Assembly (NCBI GenBank): GCA_964498425.1 | Contig: CAZCGQ010000002.1 | Coordinates: 34,193-98,192 of the forward strand | DNA length: 64,000 nt | Origin: an uncultured Gammaproteobacteria bacterium | GTDB taxonomy: Bacteria > Patescibacteriota > Microgenomatia > UBA12405 > JAHJSD01 | Reading direction: 5' to 3' | In this document: piece after piece, positions 5,909 to 52,194 of the stretch | How the letters are laid out: each line of letters begins with the position of its first letter | How positions within the stretch are numbered: position 1 is the first letter of the stretch | The notes under the pieces: model-generated | Seen by the model: the letters and a program-made list of their open reading frames with translations, nothing else | Database searches by the model: none | Told to the model about the DNA's origin: nothing | Position numbers and translations under genes: made by a program

Positions 5909-5981
5909 GGGCCTGTAGCTCAGCGGTTGGAGCGCGCCGTTCACATCGGCGAGGCCAGTGGTTCGAATCCACTCAGGCCCA
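5909..5981 (+). tRNA. tRNA-Val (anticodon CAC)
   Basis: Cloverleaf GGGCCTG/CAGGCCC acceptor, GCTC/GAGC D-stem, anticodon loop TTCACAT, TTCGAAT T-loop. CCA is not encoded. Confidence 0.85.
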
Positions 5982-6794
5982 CAGATTGATGGTTGTGAAA
6001 TAACGCCCGCGGTAGTTGGAAAATCGGGGAGAGGAGAGAATTAGTTTCTTGGCTTCGTCAATGTTAAAACTCTTAGGGTTTAGTATATCTGTAAACTTTG
6101 ATAGTTTATCCCAAGAGTAAGCTTCTTTTGGTTTTCCACCGGATTGATTCCAATTATCGGTCTTTTGCTGAGAGAGATAAAAGTCGGTTGTTAAGTATAT
6201 TTTGCCGTTGTTTTTTTTCACTCGAAGCATTTCTTTTAACGCTTGTTTTGTTCTTGGCCAGTCGTCTAGGTGTTCTATGGCAGATATGGATATGACCAGG
6301 TCGAATTGATTGTCTTTGAACGGCATTTGGCACATATCGGCTTTAACGAAATTAACCTTTGTTTCCGGCACATCCGACCAGGGCTTATTTATTTTCTTTA
6401 TGTCTAAGGACGTAACGTCTGCTTTTAAACTAGCTAAATATTCTGGAAGTAAGCTTGGGCCAGTACCAATATCAAGAATTTTTAATCCCTTGAAATTAGT
6501 ATCTTTTAGTAGATTAAGCAATGCGCCATATTCCCAAGCCCGTATGCCATATGTTTCCGGCTCAAATATCCGTTGAAACCAACCAGAATGAAATTCACCC
6601 AGCTTTTTTATTTTCTGTCTAACCAGACGAATATCTTGACGGTCAGAAATCTTGTTTTGAAGAGGATCTTCTTGGCTATTGAAAGGAGTAACCCATTCCC
6701 AACCATAATTTAACAACCATTTTGTATCCCAATATCCATTTTTGCTGAATAGTTTGATCCAGTTGATTAGGGCTTGGTGCCAGTATTGCCGCAT
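5973..6794 (-). CDS. Class I SAM-dependent methyltransferase
   Basis: LKILDIGTGPSLLPEYL (motif I), DLVISISAIEHL. The stop codon overlaps the tRNA-Val 3' end by 9 nt. Confidence 0.7.
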   Translation of the reverse strand: MRQYWHQALINWIKLFSKNGYWDTKWLLNYGWEWVTPFNSQEDPLQNKISDRQDIRLVRQKIKKLGEFHSGWFQRIFEPETYGIRAWEYGALLNLLKDTNFKGLKILDIGTGPSLLPEYLASLKADVTSLDIKKINKPWSDVPETKVNFVKADMCQMPFKDNQFDLVISISAIEHLDDWPRTKQALKEMLRVKKNNGKIYLTTDFYLSQQKTDNWNQSGGKPKEAYSWDKLSKFTDILNPKSFNIDEAKKLILSSPRFSNYRGRYFTTINLWA

Positions 6795-11814: not shown

Positions 11815-11903
11815 CATGATTGAACTGGCAAACCCAGCTCGGAGTAATTGTACCAGAATCAATTATCGCTTACAAACAAAGTAAGAATGGGCTAATAAAA
11901 GAG

Positions 11904-11976
11904 AGCCTGCGGTCGGAATTGAACCGACGGCCTATCCCTTACGAAGGGATTGCTCTGCCCCTGAGCTACGCAGGCA
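11904..11976 (-). tRNA. tRNA-Thr (anticodon CGT)
   Basis: Reverse-complement cloverleaf GCCTGCG...CGCAGGC, anticodon loop TTCGTAA, T-loop TTCAATT. Confidence 0.8.
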
Positions 11977-11982
11977 TGAAGG

Positions 11983-12056
11983 AGCGGGAGACCAGATTCG
12001 AACTGGCGACCTTCTGCTTGGGAAGCAGACGCTCTAACCAACTGAGCTACTCCCGC
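11983..12056 (-). tRNA. tRNA-Gly (anticodon CCC)
   Basis: GCGGGAGTAGCTCAGTTGGTTAGAGC..., anticodon loop TTCCCAA, TTCGAAT T-loop, discriminator U. Confidence 0.8.
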
Positions 12057-12165
12057 CTACGCTAAGACTACAGCGAGGTAAACCCGTCTAATCCGCTAAA
12101 ACACGAATACGACGAGGTAAACCCGCCCTATCACTTAAACTTAGTAACTAATTTTAAGTTTACTT

Positions 12166-17819: not shown

Positions 17820-18500
17820 TTAAATTCTGGCAAAAAAGTAGAGCCAGTCTTTTTCCTCGTTTTCTTCTGACTTTTGGCCGGTCTGAATAATTTGAAAATT
17901 ATTGGTAATCAAAACCTCTTGAAATTCTTTGCGCTTAAAAAGGTGAAAAAATCTGGCTATCTGGTTATTGCCCTTACTGGAAATTTTCATTTCCTTTTTC
18001 TCTCTTCCCTTGGTTCTCTTTTCCAGAGTAATAAAGACTAAACCATCAGGTTTAATCACCCGTTTTATTTCAGTTAGTGCTTTTTTTAAGTCTGGCGAGT
18101 CAAGATGGAGTAGTACAGCTGAAACCCAAACAACATCAAAAGTGTTAGCTCTAAAATCTAACTTAGCTACATCCATTTGATGAAATTCAACTTGAGGAAA
18201 ACTTTTTCGGGCTACTTTTAACATGCCGGCTGATAAATCAACACCGGTATAGTTCATACCCGCTTTCAAAGCTAGAGCGGCATCCCTACCTACGCCGCAA
18301 CCTAAATCTAGAAATCTACATTCTGATGTTTTGATACCAGACTCTTTTAGAAGTTTTAGAAGCAAATCGAATTCTTTCTGCCAAAAAAAAGGTTGAGCGT
18401 TTTCCTTTTTGTAAAATCTAGCAAATTTATCATAGGCCTGAACGGTAGTAGCTTTATAGTTTTGAAATTTATCTTTAGCCATTATCCTATATCTTACCAA
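17820..18500 (-). CDS. Class I SAM-dependent methyltransferase
   Basis: RFLDLGCGVGRDAALALKAG (motif I), DVVWVSAVLLHL. Confidence 0.7.
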   Translation of the reverse strand: MVRYRIMAKDKFQNYKATTVQAYDKFARFYKKENAQPFFWQKEFDLLLKLLKESGIKTSECRFLDLGCGVGRDAALALKAGMNYTGVDLSAGMLKVARKSFPQVEFHQMDVAKLDFRANTFDVVWVSAVLLHLDSPDLKKALTEIKRVIKPDGLVFITLEKRTKGREKKEMKISSKGNNQIARFFHLFKRKEFQEVLITNNFQIIQTGQKSEENEEKDWLYFFARI

Positions 18501-32856: not shown

Positions 32857-34617
32857 ATGGGGAACAAAATAAAAGTATTACCAGAGGAGTTGGTTAACCA
32901 GATTGCGGCGGGGGAAGTAGTGGAGAGGCCGGCTTCGGTGGTTAAGGAATTGGTTGAAAATGCTTTAGACGCTGGGGCAACTTTTTTGGAAATTAGCATT
33001 GTTAAAGGTGGGAAAGAGGGAATTGAAGTTCGGGATAACGGCCAGGGAATGACTAAGGAAGATGCTTTGTTAGCGGTGAAAAGATACTCAACTTCAAAAA
33101 TTAATTCCGTTGATGATTTAAACCAAATTAAAACCTTTGGATTTCGGGGCGAAGCTTTAGCAAGTATCGCTTCGGTGTCAAAATTTACCTTGAAAACGAA
33201 GCCTAGCGATTCTGTTGAAGGAACAAAGATTACTCTTGACGACAACGGTCAACCGAAAGCGGAAACCTGTGCGCACCCGACGGGAACGACGGTAGAAATT
33301 AATGATCTTTTTTACAATGTACCAGCCCGGCAGAAGTTTATGAAAACCGATCAAACAGAGTTTAAACATATTCGGGATTTTGTTACTGCTCAAGCAATTT
33401 GTCATCCTCAAATCGGCTTTCTTTTAAACCACAACGAAAGAGAAGTTTTTAACCTTCCTGAAAATCAAAAGCTGTCCAGCCGGCTAACTAATTTGCTTAA
33501 TTTGGATCTTGAACAATTTTTGCCAATCGAATTGAAGGCGGATTATTTCAGTTTGAAAGGATTTGTTGGTTTGCCGGAGGTGGCTAGGAAGAAACAATCG
33601 GTTCAGTATTTGTTTGTTAATCAGCGGTACCTGTCAAATAAAACCGTCTCCGGGGCGATTTATAAAGCCTACAGCCAGTTACTGCCTTCGGGAATTAAAC
33701 CGGCTTACGTTTTAAAAATAAATGTCCGACAGGATTTGATTGATGTCAATGTTCATCCTCGTAAGGAGGAAGTTAAGTTTATTTCTCCGGGAGTGATTTT
33801 TAACAACCTTTATAAAGCAATTTATTCAAAACTGAACCAAGCGGCAGAAAACCAACGAGTTGTTTATAAAGCTCCACCAAGTCAGGTTCACCAACAATCG
33901 GCAGGAGGAGGGACAGCCAAAAGTAATTACCAGCCGGAAACTCGGCCAAAACCGAACTACACTGAACAACAACAGTTTGTGCAATCAATCCTTGAAGACA
34001 AAGATTCAGGTTTGGTAAATTCTGGGCCAAATGATATTTGGCAGATTAGTAGTTTGTATTTGGTTGTTAGGGGCGATAAAGAATTGATAATTTATGACCA
34101 GCATGCAGCGGAAGAAAAGATACTTTTTGAGCAATTTAAAAAGGATTTTATGGCCAAACGCGGGGACAGCCAGGAACTGTTGTTTGAAGAAGAAATTAGT
34201 TTAACTCCCGAGGATTTAAACCTAGTTAAGGAACATCAAAAAACCTTGGAAGCTATTGGATTTCAATTCGAAATTACAAATAATGCTATTAAGATAAAGG
34301 GTATCCCGATAGTTTTGGAAGATAAAAATATTGGGGTAATCTTTCGAAATTATCTGGATGAGCTGAAGTCGCCAGAAGAAGAACTGCATCCGGATCCAGG
34401 CGATACCGGCATTGACAAAAACACTTTAACAAACCTGGCTTATCTTGCCTGCCGGTCAGCCGTTAAACAGGGAGATAAATTAACTCCAGCAAAACGTCAA
34501 GAGATTATTAATAAATTGAGTGATCTTGGAGCAGTTGGAATGACTTGCCCTCACGGTCGACCGACATATATTAAAATCTCTCTAACTGATTTAAACAAAC
34601 GCTTCCACCGAAGTTGA
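32857..34617 (+). CDS. mutL: DNA mismatch repair protein MutL
   Basis: GHKL N-terminus (VVKELVENALDAGAT; RDNGQGM; GFRGEAL), C-terminal dimerisation domain. Confidence 0.9.
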   Translation: MGNKIKVLPEELVNQIAAGEVVERPASVVKELVENALDAGATFLEISIVKGGKEGIEVRDNGQGMTKEDALLAVKRYSTSKINSVDDLNQIKTFGFRGEALASIASVSKFTLKTKPSDSVEGTKITLDDNGQPKAETCAHPTGTTVEINDLFYNVPARQKFMKTDQTEFKHIRDFVTAQAICHPQIGFLLNHNEREVFNLPENQKLSSRLTNLLNLDLEQFLPIELKADYFSLKGFVGLPEVARKKQSVQYLFVNQRYLSNKTVSGAIYKAYSQLLPSGIKPAYVLKINVRQDLIDVNVHPRKEEVKFISPGVIFNNLYKAIYSKLNQAAENQRVVYKAPPSQVHQQSAGGGTAKSNYQPETRPKPNYTEQQQFVQSILEDKDSGLVNSGPNDIWQISSLYLVVRGDKELIIYDQHAAEEKILFEQFKKDFMAKRGDSQELLFEEEISLTPEDLNLVKEHQKTLEAIGFQFEITNNAIKIKGIPIVLEDKNIGVIFRNYLDELKSPEEELHPDPGDTGIDKNTLTNLAYLACRSAVKQGDKLTPAKRQEIINKLSDLGAVGMTCPHGRPTYIKISLTDLNKRFHRS

Positions 34618-34625
34618 ATCTTCCA

Positions 34626-34670
34626 AGGTTCAAACCTAAACAACCTTGAAGGTTAATTAGGTTTGAACCT
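34626..34670 (+). terminator. Nested stem-loop downstream of mutL (12-bp stem AGGTTCAAACCT/AGGTTTGAACCT with an internal AACCTT-G-AAGGTT hairpin)
   Basis: Inverted repeats read directly from the sequence. There is no clean U-tract, so terminator function is uncertain. Confidence 0.3.
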
Positions 34671-34690
34671 AATTATGATATGATGAATTT

Positions 34691-35377
34691 GTGGGGAAAA
34701 GGGCTTACACCATTCATGATTTGCCTGAGGAAGAACGGCCGCGGGAAAGACTTCAGAGGGTAGGAGCAGGTAATCTTTCTCATCAAGAATTGTTGGCAAT
34801 TATTATTGAAAAAGGCAGTCAGGGCGAAAACGCCTTACATTTGGCTCAACGGCTAATTGCTGAATTTGGTTCTTTGAGAAAGGTAAAAAAAGCAACTTTT
34901 GAACAACTGACTTCAGTTAAGGGCATTGGGCCAGCAACTGCCTGCAAACTGAAAGCTGCTTTTTGTCTCGGTCAGGCTGGCAAAACAAAAAGCTTAGGTA
35001 AAAGGAAGATTAAATCTGCCAATGATATTTATAGGTTGGTTAAGGATGAAATAGGGGAGAAGCAAAAGGAATTTTTTATCTTAATTTGTTTAGACAGCCG
35101 CAACTGCGTTACCAGCCAGGAGGTTATTTCTATTGGGTCACTAAATTCTAGTTTGTCTCACCCAAGGGAAGTTTTTAAAGCGGCAATTGACCACCGAGCG
35201 GCGGCGATTGTTCTTTGTCATAATCATCCGTCTGGTGATGTTCAACCAAGCGATAGTGATTTGAAGTTGACGGAAAGGTTAAAACAAGTCAGTCAACTGG
35301 TTGATATTCCTTTAATCGATCATCTGATTGTTTCCCCAACTACTTTCTTTAGCTTTTCCGAAAAAAGCTTGATGTAA
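34691..35377 (+). CDS. radC: RadC-like JAB/MPN domain protein
   Basis: Helix-hairpin-helix N-terminus and HNHPSGD plus SDSD JAMM motif. Confidence 0.85.
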   Translation: MGKRAYTIHDLPEEERPRERLQRVGAGNLSHQELLAIIIEKGSQGENALHLAQRLIAEFGSLRKVKKATFEQLTSVKGIGPATACKLKAAFCLGQAGKTKSLGKRKIKSANDIYRLVKDEIGEKQKEFFILICLDSRNCVTSQEVISIGSLNSSLSHPREVFKAAIDHRAAAIVLCHNHPSGDVQPSDSDLKLTERLKQVSQLVDIPLIDHLIVSPTTFFSFSEKSLM

Positions 35378-35378
35378 G
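35321..35378 (+). repeat. Direct-repeat copy A (radC 3' end), 58 bp
   Basis: 54 of 58 nt identical to copy B at 36168-36225. Confidence 0.8.
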
Positions 35379-35400
35379 TTTGGTGTGATATTATTGAAAA

Positions 35401-36159
35401 ATGGACGAAGGTTTTGAAAGCCAACCGATCAGGAAACGGATTAAAAAATCTACGGAAAATTTTGAAAGAAACTCCGGGTGGGTTAAAACAAGACGATTGC
35501 AAAGACCTGAAGGTCTAGGTCTAACTGACGCAACAGCCTCTTATGTTGACCTGCTACCACGTTTTGAAAAGAAAACTTTCCTGGATCACCTGTACCAGCT
35601 GGTTGATGATAAAGGAAAAGGAAAGTACCTTGACATAGGCGGCGGAACTGGGCTCGCTGCTTTAGACTTAAGAGAAATTTTCCCACCTGAAAAGTTGGAC
35701 ATTGCTGTCATTGGCCATCAAACTGACATTGAAGAAGGACAATACGCACATTTCGGCAGATATCCATTGCAGCCAACAAAAGAAAAGTTGGAGGAGAACA
35801 ATATTAACTTTATTCACACAGATTTCCTAAAAGCACATAAGAAATTAGGCAGCAGTTCTTTTGATGTTGTGACTGCATGCTGGTCATTAAACTATATAGA
35901 ATATCCCCCTTACGCAATTTTAAAAAAAGTCTGGCGGCAATTGACTCCTAATGGAGTAGCCTTTATTTATCCTCTCTCAGTAGGATTGGTTGATACAAAA
36001 ACGGGAGACCGGCTTTCTTTCACTGAATATCTACAAGATGAATTTGATTTAGATATTGAGGCAAGAGGTGGTGGAATTAGTTTTAGAAGGACAAAACCTC
36101 AACTCCCAAACAATTTAAAACAAAACATCAGGTATGGTGACGTAGAACTACCAAAATAA
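35401..36159 (+). CDS. Class I SAM-dependent methyltransferase carried between the 58-bp direct repeats
   Basis: YLDIGGGTGLAALDL (motif I), DVVTACWSLNYI. Confidence 0.65.
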   Translation: MDEGFESQPIRKRIKKSTENFERNSGWVKTRRLQRPEGLGLTDATASYVDLLPRFEKKTFLDHLYQLVDDKGKGKYLDIGGGTGLAALDLREIFPPEKLDIAVIGHQTDIEEGQYAHFGRYPLQPTKEKLEENNINFIHTDFLKAHKKLGSSSFDVVTACWSLNYIEYPPYAILKKVWRQLTPNGVAFIYPLSVGLVDTKTGDRLSFTEYLQDEFDLDIEARGGGISFRRTKPQLPNNLKQNIRYGDVELPK

Positions 36160-36167
36160 TTTTATAA

Positions 36168-36225
36168 TCACCTGATTGTTTCCCCAACCACCTTCTTTAG
36201 CTTTTCCGAAAAAGGCTTGATGTAA
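36168..36225 (+). repeat. Direct-repeat copy B: a non-coding duplicate of the radC 3' end that re-creates ...LIVSPTTFFSFSEKGLM*
   Basis: Aligns to 35321-35378 with four mismatches. Confidence 0.8.
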
Positions 36226-36266: not shown

Positions 36267-36800
36267 ATGGTAGAAAGAATGGCCGGCTTGACTGCTGTTG
36301 ACGCACTACTCTCACCCCAACAAAAGGAAATTGACTCACTTCTAAGTAATTATTTGGTTGTAGATGAACTTCTTCAAACTCGCTACAAATCTGTAATGTC
36401 ACGAACTTCCAGCAGGGATGATATGCTAGAAAATCCTCCTCGATTTCGTTTTTTGTCGAAATACTGCACGGCAATATATGATCCCCAAGCAGAAGTTTTA
36501 TATGAAGGAAAGTGGAGTGACCTACATTTTTGGATTGCTCGAAAAAATGGATTGGCAACCTTGTCCGAAGAATGGCATGATAGAAAACAACGCTATGTAA
36601 GTTGTGATCTTTTTTCTCTTAGGGCAGTTAGGGGAGTTAGAGTAGCAATATTAAATACCCTTCATATTTTTGCTAAACAAGATTTAAACAAGATAAAAAA
36701 ATTAGGATTTGAAGTTATGGGGCCCGAATATCATTGGCTTATTGAAAACAATTACACTTTTGAGGGGTTTATTAAAACACCATCGGCCTTAACAAGGTAA
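36267..36800 (+). CDS. Hypothetical protein
   Basis: 177-aa ORF with no recognised motifs. The competing antisense ORF at 36148-36558 was rejected. Confidence 0.35.
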   Translation: MVERMAGLTAVDALLSPQQKEIDSLLSNYLVVDELLQTRYKSVMSRTSSRDDMLENPPRFRFLSKYCTAIYDPQAEVLYEGKWSDLHFWIARKNGLATLSEEWHDRKQRYVSCDLFSLRAVRGVRVAILNTLHIFAKQDLNKIKKLGFEVMGPEYHWLIENNYTFEGFIKTPSALTR

Positions 36801-36823: not shown

Positions 36824-37312
36824 TTAACTTCGGGCGAATTTGGTGAAGAAGAAGAGAGAAATGGCTACACCGCTGGTGAGAAGCATTATTGTCGGGAAGG
36901 TTACTCCAACGGTCGGCAAACTGCTGTCAGTGGCTGTACCGCTGCCAACAGAGTCCCAATTAATATTCTCATTACCAAGAGTTAAAGTAAAGGAAATTGT
37001 GCTTTCATTGTTGGTTAAGGTTACTGAGTGATCGCCGCCAGATAAGGCTGATGACGGGGTCCAAGACCAAGAACCGGAGCTGTCGGCAGTAGTCGTATAA
37101 TCTGTTCCGTCAATGTTAATCGTAACCGTTGAATCGGCAGGAGCTTCACCGGTAAATGTTGGTTGTAGGCTGGTGTGATACCACTGAGAGTAAAGCTTGC
37201 CGTCGGTATTAACCCCTCCAATGGATTTAAGGTTAAAACCAGAAGCAAAAGCTTGGGGTGCTGAAAGTAAAAAGAATAGGGCAAGTAAAGTTAATGTTTT
37301 AAAAAACTTCAT
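36824..37312 (-). CDS. Secreted Ig-like (Big) domain protein
   Basis: Signal peptide (LLSAPQAFA|SG) plus a Thr/Ser-rich beta domain and a C-terminal hydrophobic anchor. Confidence 0.45.
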   Translation of the reverse strand: MKFFKTLTLLALFFLLSAPQAFASGFNLKSIGGVNTDGKLYSQWYHTSLQPTFTGEAPADSTVTINIDGTDYTTTADSSGSWSWTPSSALSGGDHSVTLTNNESTISFTLTLGNENINWDSVGSGTATDSSLPTVGVTFPTIMLLTSGVAISLFFFTKFARS

Positions 37313-37401: not shown

Positions 37402-38508
37402 TTATTCTTCTAGATCAGCGGAAATTTGTTTGGGTTGGTCGAGTTGGATTTTATCAATCGCCCGAACAAGCTGGTTGGTTCGAGTGGAATCGACTTCGCG
37501 GTATTGACGAGTTAGAGATTCGATTCTTGAGCCGATTTTTTCAAAGGCTTCGTTGTATTTTTTGAACTGTTTTTCGAATTCCTTTATTTGTGTAATGATT
37601 TGATAGATGTTTTCCTGATAGCGAAAGTTGTCATAGGCTTGGCGAATCATTCTTAGGATCGCTGTAAATGAAAACGGGCCGGCAAGGATAACTTTTTTCC
37701 TCATTGCTTCTGACCAGATTTCATTCATTTTATCGTAGATGTAGGAAAAAATCATTTCATTGGGAACAAAGAGGATGACAAAGTCAACCGTGTTGCTTTC
37801 GGGATTGATGTAATCACGGCTGGTAATTTGTTTGATTTTTTCTTTAACGTCACGAGAGAATTTGCGAAAATATCTGGCTTTAGCGTCTTCGTCTTCGGTT
37901 TCAACCGCGCGTTGAAGATTAGAGTAGGGGAATTTGGAATCAACGTTTACCCGCATACCATCGGGAAGGAAAACACAAAAGTCTGGACGGGTTTTGGATT
38001 CTTTTTGTTCTTTGTTGAATTCGTAGTCAACTCCTTTGACAAACCCGGTCATTTTTAACAGGTTTTCGGCAACTTGCTCGCCGAACTGGCCACGAAGACG
38101 ATTGTCGGAGAGAACTCGTTTGAGATTTTCAGTTGTGCTGGAGAGATCTTTAGTGATTTTGGTTTGTTCTTCAACTTTGTTTTTTAATTCTCGGAAGGAA
38201 CCAATTCTGTCTTTTTCGGCATCTTCCAGCTTTTTATTGCTTTTTTCGAGTTCTTTTTTCAAGTTATCAACTAATTCTTTTATCGACTCTCGCTTGTTCT
38301 CCAAATCTGTTTTTATTTCTTTTTTTTCGGCCCCAAGCTTTTGGTCAGCCATCATAATCAGTTGTTCGTTGATTTTAGGAAAGATCTCGTTTACTTTTTG
38401 TTCTAAGCTGGTAGTAAGTGTGTTTGCCTGTTGCTTGTTTCTAAAGCTAGAAAATAAAAAGGCGAGAACAAACCCTCCCAGCAGACCTAAGATAATATAG
38501 AAAATCAT
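37402..38508 (-). CDS. rmuC: DNA recombination protein RmuC
   Basis: N-terminal TM helix, long coiled coil, C-terminal RmuC nuclease-like domain (DFVILFVPNEMIFSYI). Confidence 0.75.
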   Translation of the reverse strand: MIFYIILGLLGGFVLAFLFSSFRNKQQANTLTTSLEQKVNEIFPKINEQLIMMADQKLGAEKKEIKTDLENKRESIKELVDNLKKELEKSNKKLEDAEKDRIGSFRELKNKVEEQTKITKDLSSTTENLKRVLSDNRLRGQFGEQVAENLLKMTGFVKGVDYEFNKEQKESKTRPDFCVFLPDGMRVNVDSKFPYSNLQRAVETEDEDAKARYFRKFSRDVKEKIKQITSRDYINPESNTVDFVILFVPNEMIFSYIYDKMNEIWSEAMRKKVILAGPFSFTAILRMIRQAYDNFRYQENIYQIITQIKEFEKQFKKYNEAFEKIGSRIESLTRQYREVDSTRTNQLVRAIDKIQLDQPKQISADLEE

Positions 38509-50972: not shown

Positions 50973-51308
50973 ATGGCAATTAAAGCAAAGTGGAACGACA
51001 AGGTTGAATTTCATGTTGGCGATACTGTCCGAATTGATTATAAAATCGTTGAAGAGGGAAAAAAGGACAGGACCCAACCTTATGAGGGAGTAGTCATTAG
51101 TATTCGAGGTAAGGGAGAAAGCCGGTCTTTTACTGTTCGAAAAAAAGCGGTTGACAATATTGGAGTTGAACGTATTTTTCCACTAAATTCTCCCTGGATA
51201 CAAAGTCTTAAGGTCACCAAGGAGCCTAAAGATAAAGTTCGACGAGCTAAACTGAATTTTCTTCGAGAAGAACGCAGTAAAAAGAAAAAGAAGAAAAAGA
51301 AAAAATAA
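50973..51308 (+). CDS. rplS: 50S ribosomal protein L19 with a poly-Lys C-terminal tail
   Basis: [34 protein letters not shown] matches L19; ends ...[12 protein letters not shown]. Confidence 0.85.
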
Positions 51309-51487
51309 TGGCCGACAAAGAAGCACTTACCGCCTGCCTCAAGGACATGGGTATGTCTGAAGAACAAATTGAGATAACGGTTACCACCATCGACCGAGTT
51401 GAGGTGGCTAGGGATGCTTACACGCCAGAAGGAACAAAACGACTCCAGGAAATTAACCGCGAGTTACTCCTCCGAGGTGACGCTTGA
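51308..51487 (+). CDS. Small ORF (59 aa) translationally coupled to rplS (TAATG overlap)
   Basis: [25 protein letters not shown]...; GC content is noticeably higher than the flanks. Not in the supplied ORF track (below 60 aa). Confidence 0.3.
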   Translation: MADKEALTACLKDMGMSEEQIEITVTTIDRVEVARDAYTPEGTKRLQEINRELLLRGDA

Positions 51488-51532: not shown

Positions 51533-51567
51533 ATGTTATAGTATCGAAGTAGTTTGCCGCCATAGTC
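51533..51567 (+). repeat. 35-bp direct repeat: upstream copy of the tRNA-Glu 5' flank plus its first 12 nt
   Basis: 32 of 35 nt identical to 51986-52020 (atgttataRtatcgaaRtagtttgccgccatMgtc). Confidence 0.7.
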
Positions 51568-51692
51568 CCCGTACCAAAGAGAAAAGTAAGGAGAGCAAAA
51601 CTCTACTAAACCCGCGTACCCCGCAGTAAAAAGAAAAAGAAATAACTCACGATATTTGTGATTTGTATTATATATGATATCATTCGTTTATA

Positions 51693-51956
51693 ATGCCAAA
51701 CAAAACAACTGAGTTTGATAGATATCTTCAAGAAAAAGGAGGTCTCCCCGAAACAGAAGCTTATGTTGTCAAATCAGGTATTCTTTCAAGAAGGATAATA
51801 ACGCCAAAACAATTACGACCAAAACTTCGTGCTGCTAGAGCAATTGCAACAGTTCGTCTAAAAGGCATGACAGAAACAAGAAAAATATTAAAAAGATGTA
51901 GAAAAGACGGAGGGCTAGATCTAGAAGGTCCTCCAATGAGTGTTACCGACCAGTAA
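51693..51956 (+). CDS. Small basic hypothetical protein (87 aa) lying between the 35-bp repeats
   Basis: Lys/Arg-rich (KQLRPKLRAARAIATVRLKGMTETRKILKRCRK). Confidence 0.35.
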   Translation: MPNKTTEFDRYLQEKGGLPETEAYVVKSGILSRRIITPKQLRPKLRAARAIATVRLKGMTETRKILKRCRKDGGLDLEGPPMSVTDQ

Positions 51957-52008
51957 CTAATATAACTGCAAAAAAATTACTCCAAATGTTATAATATCGA
52001 AATAGTTT

Positions 52009-52081
52009 GCCGCCATCGTCTAGTGGCCGAGGATCTCAGCCTTTCAAGCTGAAGACACGGGTTCGATTCCCGTTGGCGGCA
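52009..52081 (+). tRNA. tRNA-Glu (anticodon TTC)
   Basis: GCCGCCATCGTCTAGTGGCC...CTTTCAAG anticodon loop, TTCGATT T-loop, acceptor TGGCGGC. Confidence 0.8.
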
Positions 52082-52194
52082 CAGGATTTGCTTCACAAGT
52101 TTTTTTAAAGCCACACCAATAACTTAATTTTTGCTTTTTAATAAAGATATTTTTCAGATGTAACCTGCAATTAATGATTTTGCTAGAATAAATT

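Follow-up and report, generated by a model that had tools for sequence, protein, structure and literature searches.

A duplicated radC 3' end brackets a single methyltransferase gene in a gene-turnover hotspot of a Microgenomatia genome

The DNA analyzed here, referred to as the window, is a stretch of 64,000 nucleotides from contig CAZCGQ010000002.1 of the uncultured bacterium with assembly GCA_964498425.1, which GTDB assigns to the Microgenomatia (Patescibacteriota). In this window the gene radC is followed by a single gene for an S-adenosylmethionine (SAM)-dependent methyltransferase, and behind this gene the 3' end of radC is present a second time. A repeat finder run on the window showed that both copies form a gapless direct repeat of 59 nt with 55 identical positions and a start-to-start distance of 848 nt. 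Copy 1 consists of the final 19 codons of radC together with the TAA stop codon (35375-35377). Copy 2 contains no insertions or deletions and has kept the TAA at the equivalent relative position. The first-pass annotation, which was made from the sequence alone, had described a radC 3' end duplicated behind the methyltransferase gene with four mismatches and a re-created stop codon. These observations are real, but the ends assigned to the repeat were off by 1 to 2 nt, as the radC stop does not extend to 35378 and the repeat is 59 nt long.

The four mismatches between the copies are located at 35323, 35341, 35344 and 35366, and every one is a transition. Read in the radC frame, three of them are synonymous exchanges at third codon positions (His CAT/CAC and twice Thr ACT/ACC), and the fourth replaces Ser by Gly (AGC/GGC). 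The longest exact run common to both copies is 21 nt. On the left side the similarity starts abruptly (...TTTAATCG/ATCA for copy 1 and ...TTTTATA/ATCA for copy 2) at a position without codon or gene meaning, and on the right side it ends exactly after the radC stop codon. Using a degenerate 54-nt pattern with up to three mismatches, exactly two sites were detected in the 64 kb, and the same pattern gave no match across 100 dinucleotide shuffles. The search for other copies that the first-pass annotation had proposed thus returned, within the window, only the two known sites.

The radC gene in front of the insert is intact. Its product covers positions 1-120 of the 121 positions of the Pfam RadC profile (E 7e-42) and the complete UPF0758_N profile (1-77 of 77), and it reaches 236 bits with NCBIfam PRK00024 (cutoff 180). 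The architecture is that of a full-length member of the RadC/UPF0758 family (UPF0758 N-terminal domain, HhH and RadC-like JAB domain), and the C-terminus aligns through the end of the radC genes of relatives. The first-pass annotation had considered that copy 2 might be the 3' remnant of a second, degraded radC paralogue. This candidate was rejected: no radC similarity is present upstream of copy 2 beyond the 59 nt, and the methyltransferase has the full length of its family. An apparent extension of radC into the 3' end of the methyltransferase gene in a tblastn alignment consisted of three chance residues (LKQ) and a four-residue gap, and this region fits the C-terminus of the methyltransferase family.

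The segment between the two copies (35378-36166) has a length of 789 nt and consists of a 23-nt spacer, one open reading frame (ORF) and 7 nt. This ORF is a genuine gene, because its product contains Pfam methyltransferase domains, the codon-usage score is positive in its own frame only, and the AlphaFold model is a confident Rossmann fold (predicted local distance difference test, pLDDT, 91.4) with strands alternating with helices. The SAM-binding motif LDIGGGTG is conserved across the family, and the protein therefore combines the GxGxG motif and the Rossmann-like fold of the class I enzymes. A structure search in the PDB yielded 328 methyltransferase matches with E<=1e-3; these were generic small-molecule or RNA methyltransferases with TM-scores of 0.33-0.43. 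A word-indexed search of 5.8 billion proteins matched only the protein itself, and a full HMMER scan of 1.84 billion representatives revealed 27 matches at E<=1e-10 (including the query) and seven non-self full-length relatives at E<=1e-30 with 37-44% identity. In the alignment of this family the protein from the window is full length and has a natural C-terminus of its own. With the NCBIfam equivalogs every score was far under the cutoff. A role in a defence system was also considered, and it was rejected; the matches to PADLOC mad2 (E 7e-6, generic domain) and to a PHROG tRNA methyltransferase (E 1e-4) were not used as evidence.

The stop codon of the methyltransferase gene (TAA, 36157-36159) shares its reading frame with the radC-tail remnant, and read-through would add FYNHLIVSPTTFFSFSEKGLM. 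This agreement is probably a coincidence with a one-in-three chance, and the C-terminus fits the family without the extension. Two more class I SAM-methyltransferase genes (Methyltransf_11/25) are located on the minus strand of the window at 5973-6794 and 17820-18500. Their Pfam scores are far stronger than those of the inserted gene, and neither of them surfaced in the database searches as its relative.

Table 1. Features at the radC locus and at the rplS/tRNA-Glu locus; positions refer to the window.
Feature	Position	Strand	Remarks
mutL	32857-34617	+	586-aa ORF; conserved left backbone; L126, L127 and L136 have a Pfam-annotated MutL at the syntenic position before radC
radC (RadC/UPF0758, JAB domain)	34691-35377	+	intact, 228 aa, GTG start; Pfam, NCBIfam
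Repeat copy 1	35319-35377	+	working radC 3' end including the TAA stop; states CAT/ACT/ACT/AGC (Ser), AT-type
Spacer between radC stop and methyltransferase start	35378-35400	+	23 nt; no similarity to the sequence after copy 2
Class I SAM-dependent methyltransferase	35401-36159	+	252 aa, rare family; Pfam Methyltransf_11/23/12/25, E ~1e-7
TTTTATA between methyltransferase stop and copy 2	36160-36166	+	7 nt; holds the novel junction; from the sequence
Repeat copy 2	36167-36225	+	non-coding remnant of a radC 3' end, displaced, with a separate TAA; states CAC/ACC/ACC/GGC (Gly), GC-type
ORF177	36267-36800	+	second lineage-specific gene in the slot; coding score weakly positive, in this frame alone
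Big_13 (bacterial Ig-like) gene	36824-37312	-	conserved right border of the slot, convergent with radC; Pfam Big_13
rmuC	37402-38508	-	backbone; Pfam RmuC E 3e-69; syntenic in L136 and L133
rplS	50973-51308		Pfam L19
ORF59	51308-51487		uncharacterized, 59 aa
tRNA-Glu promoter-like copy with tRNA-Glu nt 1-12	51533-51567	+	35 nt, 32/35 identical to 51986-52020
Displaced rplS (L19) 3'-end remnant	51574-51645	+	tblastn E 1e-5; directly after the tRNA-Glu 5' fragment
ORF87	51693-51956		uncharacterized, 87 aa
tRNA-Glu	52009-52082		promoter-like region and tRNA nt 1-12 at 51986-52020

The neighborhoods of radC relatives (68-82% identity; designated by L numbers) were compared with the window. In L136 the order DUF1295, mutS, mutL, radC, Big_13 (convergent), RmuC, gatC, gatA, MFS, gatB is the backbone of the window minus the methyltransferase gene and the second gene behind radC, ORF177. 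In L134 and L127-L132 the Big_13 gene also follows directly after radC. The radC genes of these relatives with an empty site are 68-75% identical to radC from the window. The Big_13 orthologues are 66-78% identical to the gene in the window; they are located right after radC in L127-L132, L134 and L136, and after cargo genes in L126, L133 and L137. This cargo consists of a PhdYeFM and YafQ/HigB toxin-antitoxin pair in L126 and L133 and of HD and EamA genes in L137, and a GNAT-like ORF occupies the slot in L063, L124 and L125. Neither the methyltransferase gene nor ORF177 (the latter searched by tblastn) was found in any radC relative. ORF177 has no Pfam, PHROG, PADLOC or NCBIfam match, and among 5.8 billion proteins it matched only itself.

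Since the relatives have empty sites, the gene orders show that the methyltransferase gene is an insertion, as claimed by the first-pass annotation, and that ORF177 is a second, separate lineage-specific cargo. Because different genes fill the same position in other relatives, the gap between radC and Big_13 is a hypervariable slot, a hotspot of gene turnover. The empty site had been predicted as a radC gene without the methyltransferase gene and with the ORF starting at 36267 (ORF177) as the next gene. The first part of this prediction was correct, but ORF177 is absent in every relative and Big_13 adjoins radC instead. A second radC tail was detected at none of the 131 usable loci of 135 scanned, and the control locus in the window was recovered. 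No duplicate of the radC tail was present behind the toxin-antitoxin cargo either; the contigs with the GNAT-like ORF stop too early to show one.

A second hypervariable slot is located between Big_13 and RmuC. It harbors genes for an alpha-2-macroglobulin and Memo in L127, and for a metallophosphatase and a 765-aa protein in L134, where rmuC is missing before gatC. In the window and in L136 this slot is empty.

The intergenic region between mutL and radC contains a near-perfect hairpin of 45 nt (34626-34670, AGGTTCAAACCTAAACAACCTTGAAGGTTAATTAGGTTTGAACCT) with a minimum free energy of -24.9 kcal/mol for the RNA and a z-score of -5.1. Upstream of radC it is preserved at almost every base in relatives with a radC of just 68-75% identity (L127 5955-5998, L136 5937-5982, L137 1602-1648, L133 4367-4410 and L134 1-45), with one compensatory pair change in L133. 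In L126 a partial copy is located downstream of radC instead (6705-6740). No Rfam family matched this hairpin, which might act as a terminator or operator or represent an uncharacterized RNA element. Two relatives contain an additional small ORF for a hydrophobic product of about 80 aa between mutL and radC (L133 4358-4710 and L138 4248-4522). This ORF is not present in the window or in the other relatives and represents another small variable insertion nearby.

Displaced gene ends in the rest of the window were sought with a whole-window repeat scan and a protein-level scan of all gene termini against the window. Exactly one further displaced gene end was found, at rplS/tRNA-Glu. The order at this locus is rplS, ORF59, a copy of the tRNA-Glu promoter-like region with 12 nt of the tRNA gene, a remnant of the rplS tail, ORF87, and finally the promoter and the tRNA-Glu gene. 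This remnant has decayed to a pseudo-fragment and contains an internal stop. Comparison of its codons for PK(D/R)KVRRAKL with the resident gene revealed that 2/10 are identical, 7/10 synonymous and 1/10 non-synonymous, and its final 20 nt are identical to 51273-51292. Because the differences are mostly synonymous, the remnant was derived from a diverged orthologue, which had functioned as an rplS end in another lineage, and not from a local or recent duplicate. The slot between rplS and tRNA-Glu can be read as a head-to-tail stack of two alternative fillings, which a crossover in the identical 20-nt patch may have joined. Judged by its gene order, the radC locus reads likewise, with the unit radC tail-methyltransferase followed by the unit radC tail-ORF177.

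Elsewhere in the window two tandem units of about 39 nt with 74% identity and the core GAGGTAAACCCG were observed at 12066-12139, adjoining a tRNA-Gly/tRNA-Thr cluster (11903-12056, minus strand).

Signatures of mobile elements were not found at the radC locus. No recombinase, integrase or transposase domain is encoded in the insert, in the syntenic block of about 29-43 kb or in 30 further ORFs of the window; the genes of the block and these ORFs are all housekeeping genes. The statement of the first-pass annotation that the insert is devoid of a recombinase proved to be correct, as the methyltransferase gene is its sole ORF. Inverted repeats pairing the ends of the insert are absent, and the repeat forms no attC-like structure. 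Collections of phages and plasmids yielded no relative of the methyltransferase, and viral contigs do not contain the repeat. Several known kinds of elements could be rejected by these results. An integron cassette with an attC site does not agree with a repeat that lacks a significant fold and is radC coding sequence, nor with the lack of an integrase among the scanned ORFs of the window. Insertion sequences, miniature inverted-repeat elements and DDE transposons with target-site duplications would require terminal inverted repeats, and their duplications are short (2-14 bp), whereas the repeat at radC comprises 59 nt and is imperfect. As no matches were obtained, an origin from a phage, plasmid or virus was rejected for both the methyltransferase and the repeat.

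The sequence differences allow a tentative assignment of the two copies. The Gly state of copy 2 is also present in the two closest radC relatives (L063 and L126), and its CAC state in 7/8 relatives. The bases AAAT come directly after copy 2 and also after the radC stops in L126 and L137, and at all four differences a GC pair in copy 2 corresponds to an AT pair in copy 1. Because of these states, this context and the direction from GC to AT, copy 2 probably represents the native tail, which was displaced, and copy 1 would be the one that came in or is derived; these indications are weak but agree with each other.

On balance, we consider the repeat to be the scar of a homology-anchored, additive integration, in which a short segment from a related lineage, comprising a radC tail and the methyltransferase gene, was added to a gene-turnover hotspot. 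The ancestral backbone would have consisted of mutS-mutL-radC, the convergent Big_13 gene, rmuC and gatCAB, with the gap between radC and Big_13 as a slot which the lineages fill with differing small genes. ORF177 would already have occupied this slot, preceded by the native radC tail, which is probably copy 2. The incoming segment would have contained a diverged radC 3' end (about 93% identical), the 23-nt spacer and the methyltransferase gene. It may have recombined via the homology of the radC tails in such a way that the resident DNA was not replaced. Two routes are conceivable: a circularized fragment could have been integrated by one crossover (a Campbell-type insertion-duplication), or a one-ended strand invasion with copying could have been followed by end-joining. 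The product of both would be the order radC body, tail 1, methyltransferase, tail 2, ORF177 with an intact radC, in which one radC tail is displaced and two alternative fillings of the slot are stacked. The methyltransferase gene would probably have joined the mutL-radC transcription unit.

An additive integration of this kind would explain the edge at the stop codon, the arbitrary left junction, the intact radC and the lack of mobility genes. As only the coding sequence is common to donor and recipient and the slot cargo beyond it differs, the homology would end with the stop codon. The left edge of the repeat would then be a one-off illegitimate junction. The duplicated segment is indeed in direct orientation, brackets the insert and ends at the coding boundary where the homology between the lineages ends, as expected for a Campbell-type event. 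A single crossover between a circle and the chromosome leads to a direct duplication of the homologous segment around the insert, as was described for conjugated plasmids in E. coli (PMC3240628). Both this case and insertion-duplication mutagenesis share with the radC locus the exact duplication of the common segment around the insert, a target gene that is intact on one side and the independence from a recombinase gene. In contrast to the experimental duplications of 109-950 bp, the homology at radC comprises only 59 nt and is imperfect, the corresponding one-gene circle of 848 bp is hypothetical, and the event is a natural one which is either old enough for 7% divergence or had a diverged donor.

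Similarities also exist to other processes which do not depend on mobile-element enzymes. Hotspots that lack mobile elements and whose gene content is turned over by recombination in the adjoining core genes occur frequently (Oliveira et al. 2017, PMC5635113). The slot at radC resembles them, as differing small accessory genes are located between the syntenic core genes radC and Big_13, and recombination in a flanking core gene is implicated. Turnover in such hotspots is usually pictured as replacement by double crossover, whereas here the integration would be additive, with two stacked cargo genes and a remnant left behind. In homology-facilitated illegitimate recombination (HFIR; PMC3240628) and in merodiploidy (PMC3784515) foreign DNA is likewise anchored by one homologous stretch, and duplicated or additive structures, which can also result from transformation (PMC3784515), are formed without mobile-element enzymes. 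HFIR normally removes a similar-sized piece of recipient DNA (PMC3240628). The junction at 36166/36167 is sharp and looks illegitimate, but the recipient DNA is duplicated and not deleted. The reported merodiploids span 100-900 kb between insertion sequence-like repeats compared to 0.85 kb here. Because the flanking duplication matches the product of a single crossover and classical HFIR usually deletes recipient DNA (PMC3240628), we favor the Campbell-type route or the additive route by one-ended invasion.

Several points weigh against an additive integration from a related lineage. The excess of synonymous exchanges between the copies (three of four) is no proof that both tails evolved as coding sequence, as it is not significant when conditioned on transitions (P 0.15-0.25), and it can serve as a hint only. 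The copies were polarized by a single amino-acid state and few bases. The insert resembles the host in composition and codon usage, so that its composition does not mark it as foreign. Neither a donor genome nor a near-identical strain was found, close relatives are lacking for both the methyltransferase and ORF177, and one of the tails is therefore only presumed to be foreign. The only methyltransferase homologue with a known context (L139) is not located beside radC; it is found in an unrelated context of metabolic genes and without repeats. Moreover, the circular intermediate of 848 bp is hypothetical, and the view is that of a 64 kb window, so that a trans-acting integrase encoded elsewhere in the genome is possible.

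This last point leads to one of the two origins which the first-pass annotation had named as typical, site-specific integration. In this case, the locus would be the relic of a small integrative element or of a decayed unit like a cis-mobilizable element (CIME) at the radC 3' end, whose tyrosine recombinase was lost or is encoded elsewhere. The two copies would be attL and attR, and the copy from the element would restore the radC frame. The classic layout of islands in gene 3' ends is indeed present: direct repeats bracket the insert, and copy 1 completes radC and ends with its stop codon. As a target this part of radC is known from staphylococci, where elements of the Tn554 family insert at att554 in the 3' region of the gene (bioRxiv 10.1101/2020.09.30.320143) and leave 3' radC remnants downstream of the insert. 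The 64 kb of the window also belong to a larger contig (at least 204 kb), which could encode a recombinase acting in trans. However, Tn554 has a size of 6-7 kb, encodes TnpA/B/C, truncates radC and uses a 6-bp core, whereas at the locus described here tnpA, tnpB and tnpC are absent, radC is restored and the duplication comprises 59 nt, and a Tn554-like insertion was rejected for these reasons. In contrast to the islands and cis-mobilizable elements of tyrosine recombinases, the insert is smaller than 0.8 kb and contains a single gene, and an integrase was found neither in it nor in its syntenic neighborhood nor among the 30 other ORFs. Only 23 and 7 nt inside the insert are non-coding, and therefore non-coding arms next to a core are absent and no space is left for the arm-type sites of a tyrosine recombinase. 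A cognate or larger element was present at none of the 131 radC loci, so radC is not a recurrent target in the sampled genomes, and other fillings of the slot such as the toxin-antitoxin pair came without tail duplication. Relatives in viral contigs, phages or plasmids are missing as well. Finally, at the rplS/tRNA-Glu locus two different gene ends are duplicated at one junction, which an att model does not predict. We regard a site-specific origin as unlikely; the observed pattern agrees better with a scar of recombination in a turnover hotspot than with a cassette capable of moving itself.

A purely local rearrangement without an incoming tail, at a radC that was already followed by the methyltransferase gene, would require either a tandem duplication of tail and methyltransferase gene with a subsequent deletion or template switching during replication, and the 7% divergence would have accumulated since. 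Both copies are direct and close to each other, their few differences are all transitions and statistically compatible with neutral drift, and the composition of the insert is host-like. But two events are needed, and one end of the deletion would have to be placed exactly after the stop codon. The end of the similarity at a coding boundary is left unexplained. In addition, copy 2 contains no indels and shows the more ancestral-looking states although it is the unconstrained copy, and at rplS the synonymous-dominated divergence of the remnant excludes a simple local duplication. A local origin is quite unlikely under these circumstances.

The scars might also belong to a distinct class of recombinase-less single-gene units of about 0.35-0.85 kb, by which these bacteria with small genomes would acquire orphan genes. 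Such units would carry the 3' end of a conserved host gene as an "address", circulate among lineages as a circle or fragment, add themselves by 20-60 nt of homology and stack cargo in hotspots. If this were true, radC/methyltransferase and rplS/ORF59-ORF87 would be two instances within 64 kb. We consider such a class decidedly improbable, and regard the event as one more case of a known type and not as a new cassette system or mobile element.

An artefact would have arisen if the metagenome assembler had concatenated two strain haplotypes, radC-methyltransferase and radC-ORF177, head to tail. The sequence is apparently metagenome-derived and is deposited as a single NCBI record of 204,570 bp, and two loci with "stacked haplotypes" per window could mirror serially concatenated assembly bubbles. 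Moreover, the exact products of radC and of the methyltransferase gene are not present in the independent Logan assembly, which contains those of mutL, ORF177 and Big_13. This absence could mean that polymorphism of the population at the insertion broke the contigs, or may reflect plain fragmentation; Logan lacks MutS and RmuC as well, and the pattern is thus not specific for the locus. Against an artefact, the junction TTTTATA/ATCACCTG has no k-mer context in common with the junction between radC body and tail, and real spanning reads would have been needed to assemble it. The longest shared exact run of 21 nt is too short to misdirect an assembler at the usual final k. Furthermore, the rplS remnant is decayed and contains an internal stop, and thus it is not the working gene end of a second strain. 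Taken together, an assembly error is very improbable.

That copy 2 was kept for a function, as a terminator, regulatory RNA or protein-binding site for the 3' ends of radC and the methyltransferase gene, is hardly credible: it has accumulated no indels and the repeat contains a weak hairpin (AGCTTTT...AAAAGCT), but the repeat folds no better than shuffled controls (z = -1.4 and +0.7, the latter for copy 2), a terminator scan and Rfam gave no match, by which a terminator or structured RNA was ruled out, and among relatives the tail DNA is conserved no more than the coding constraint explains.

The radC locus reveals no new type of mobile element and no new biochemical function. Its value is that of a clean and datable case in which a streamlined genome would have gained a single foreign gene without the machinery of a mobile element, while the core gene was preserved and a remnant scar was left. 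As two such scars are present within 64 kb, this lineage may regularly acquire the orphan genes of its hotspots by additive, homology-anchored integration, and remnants of gene ends could be used to mark and date transfers in metagenome-assembled genomes.

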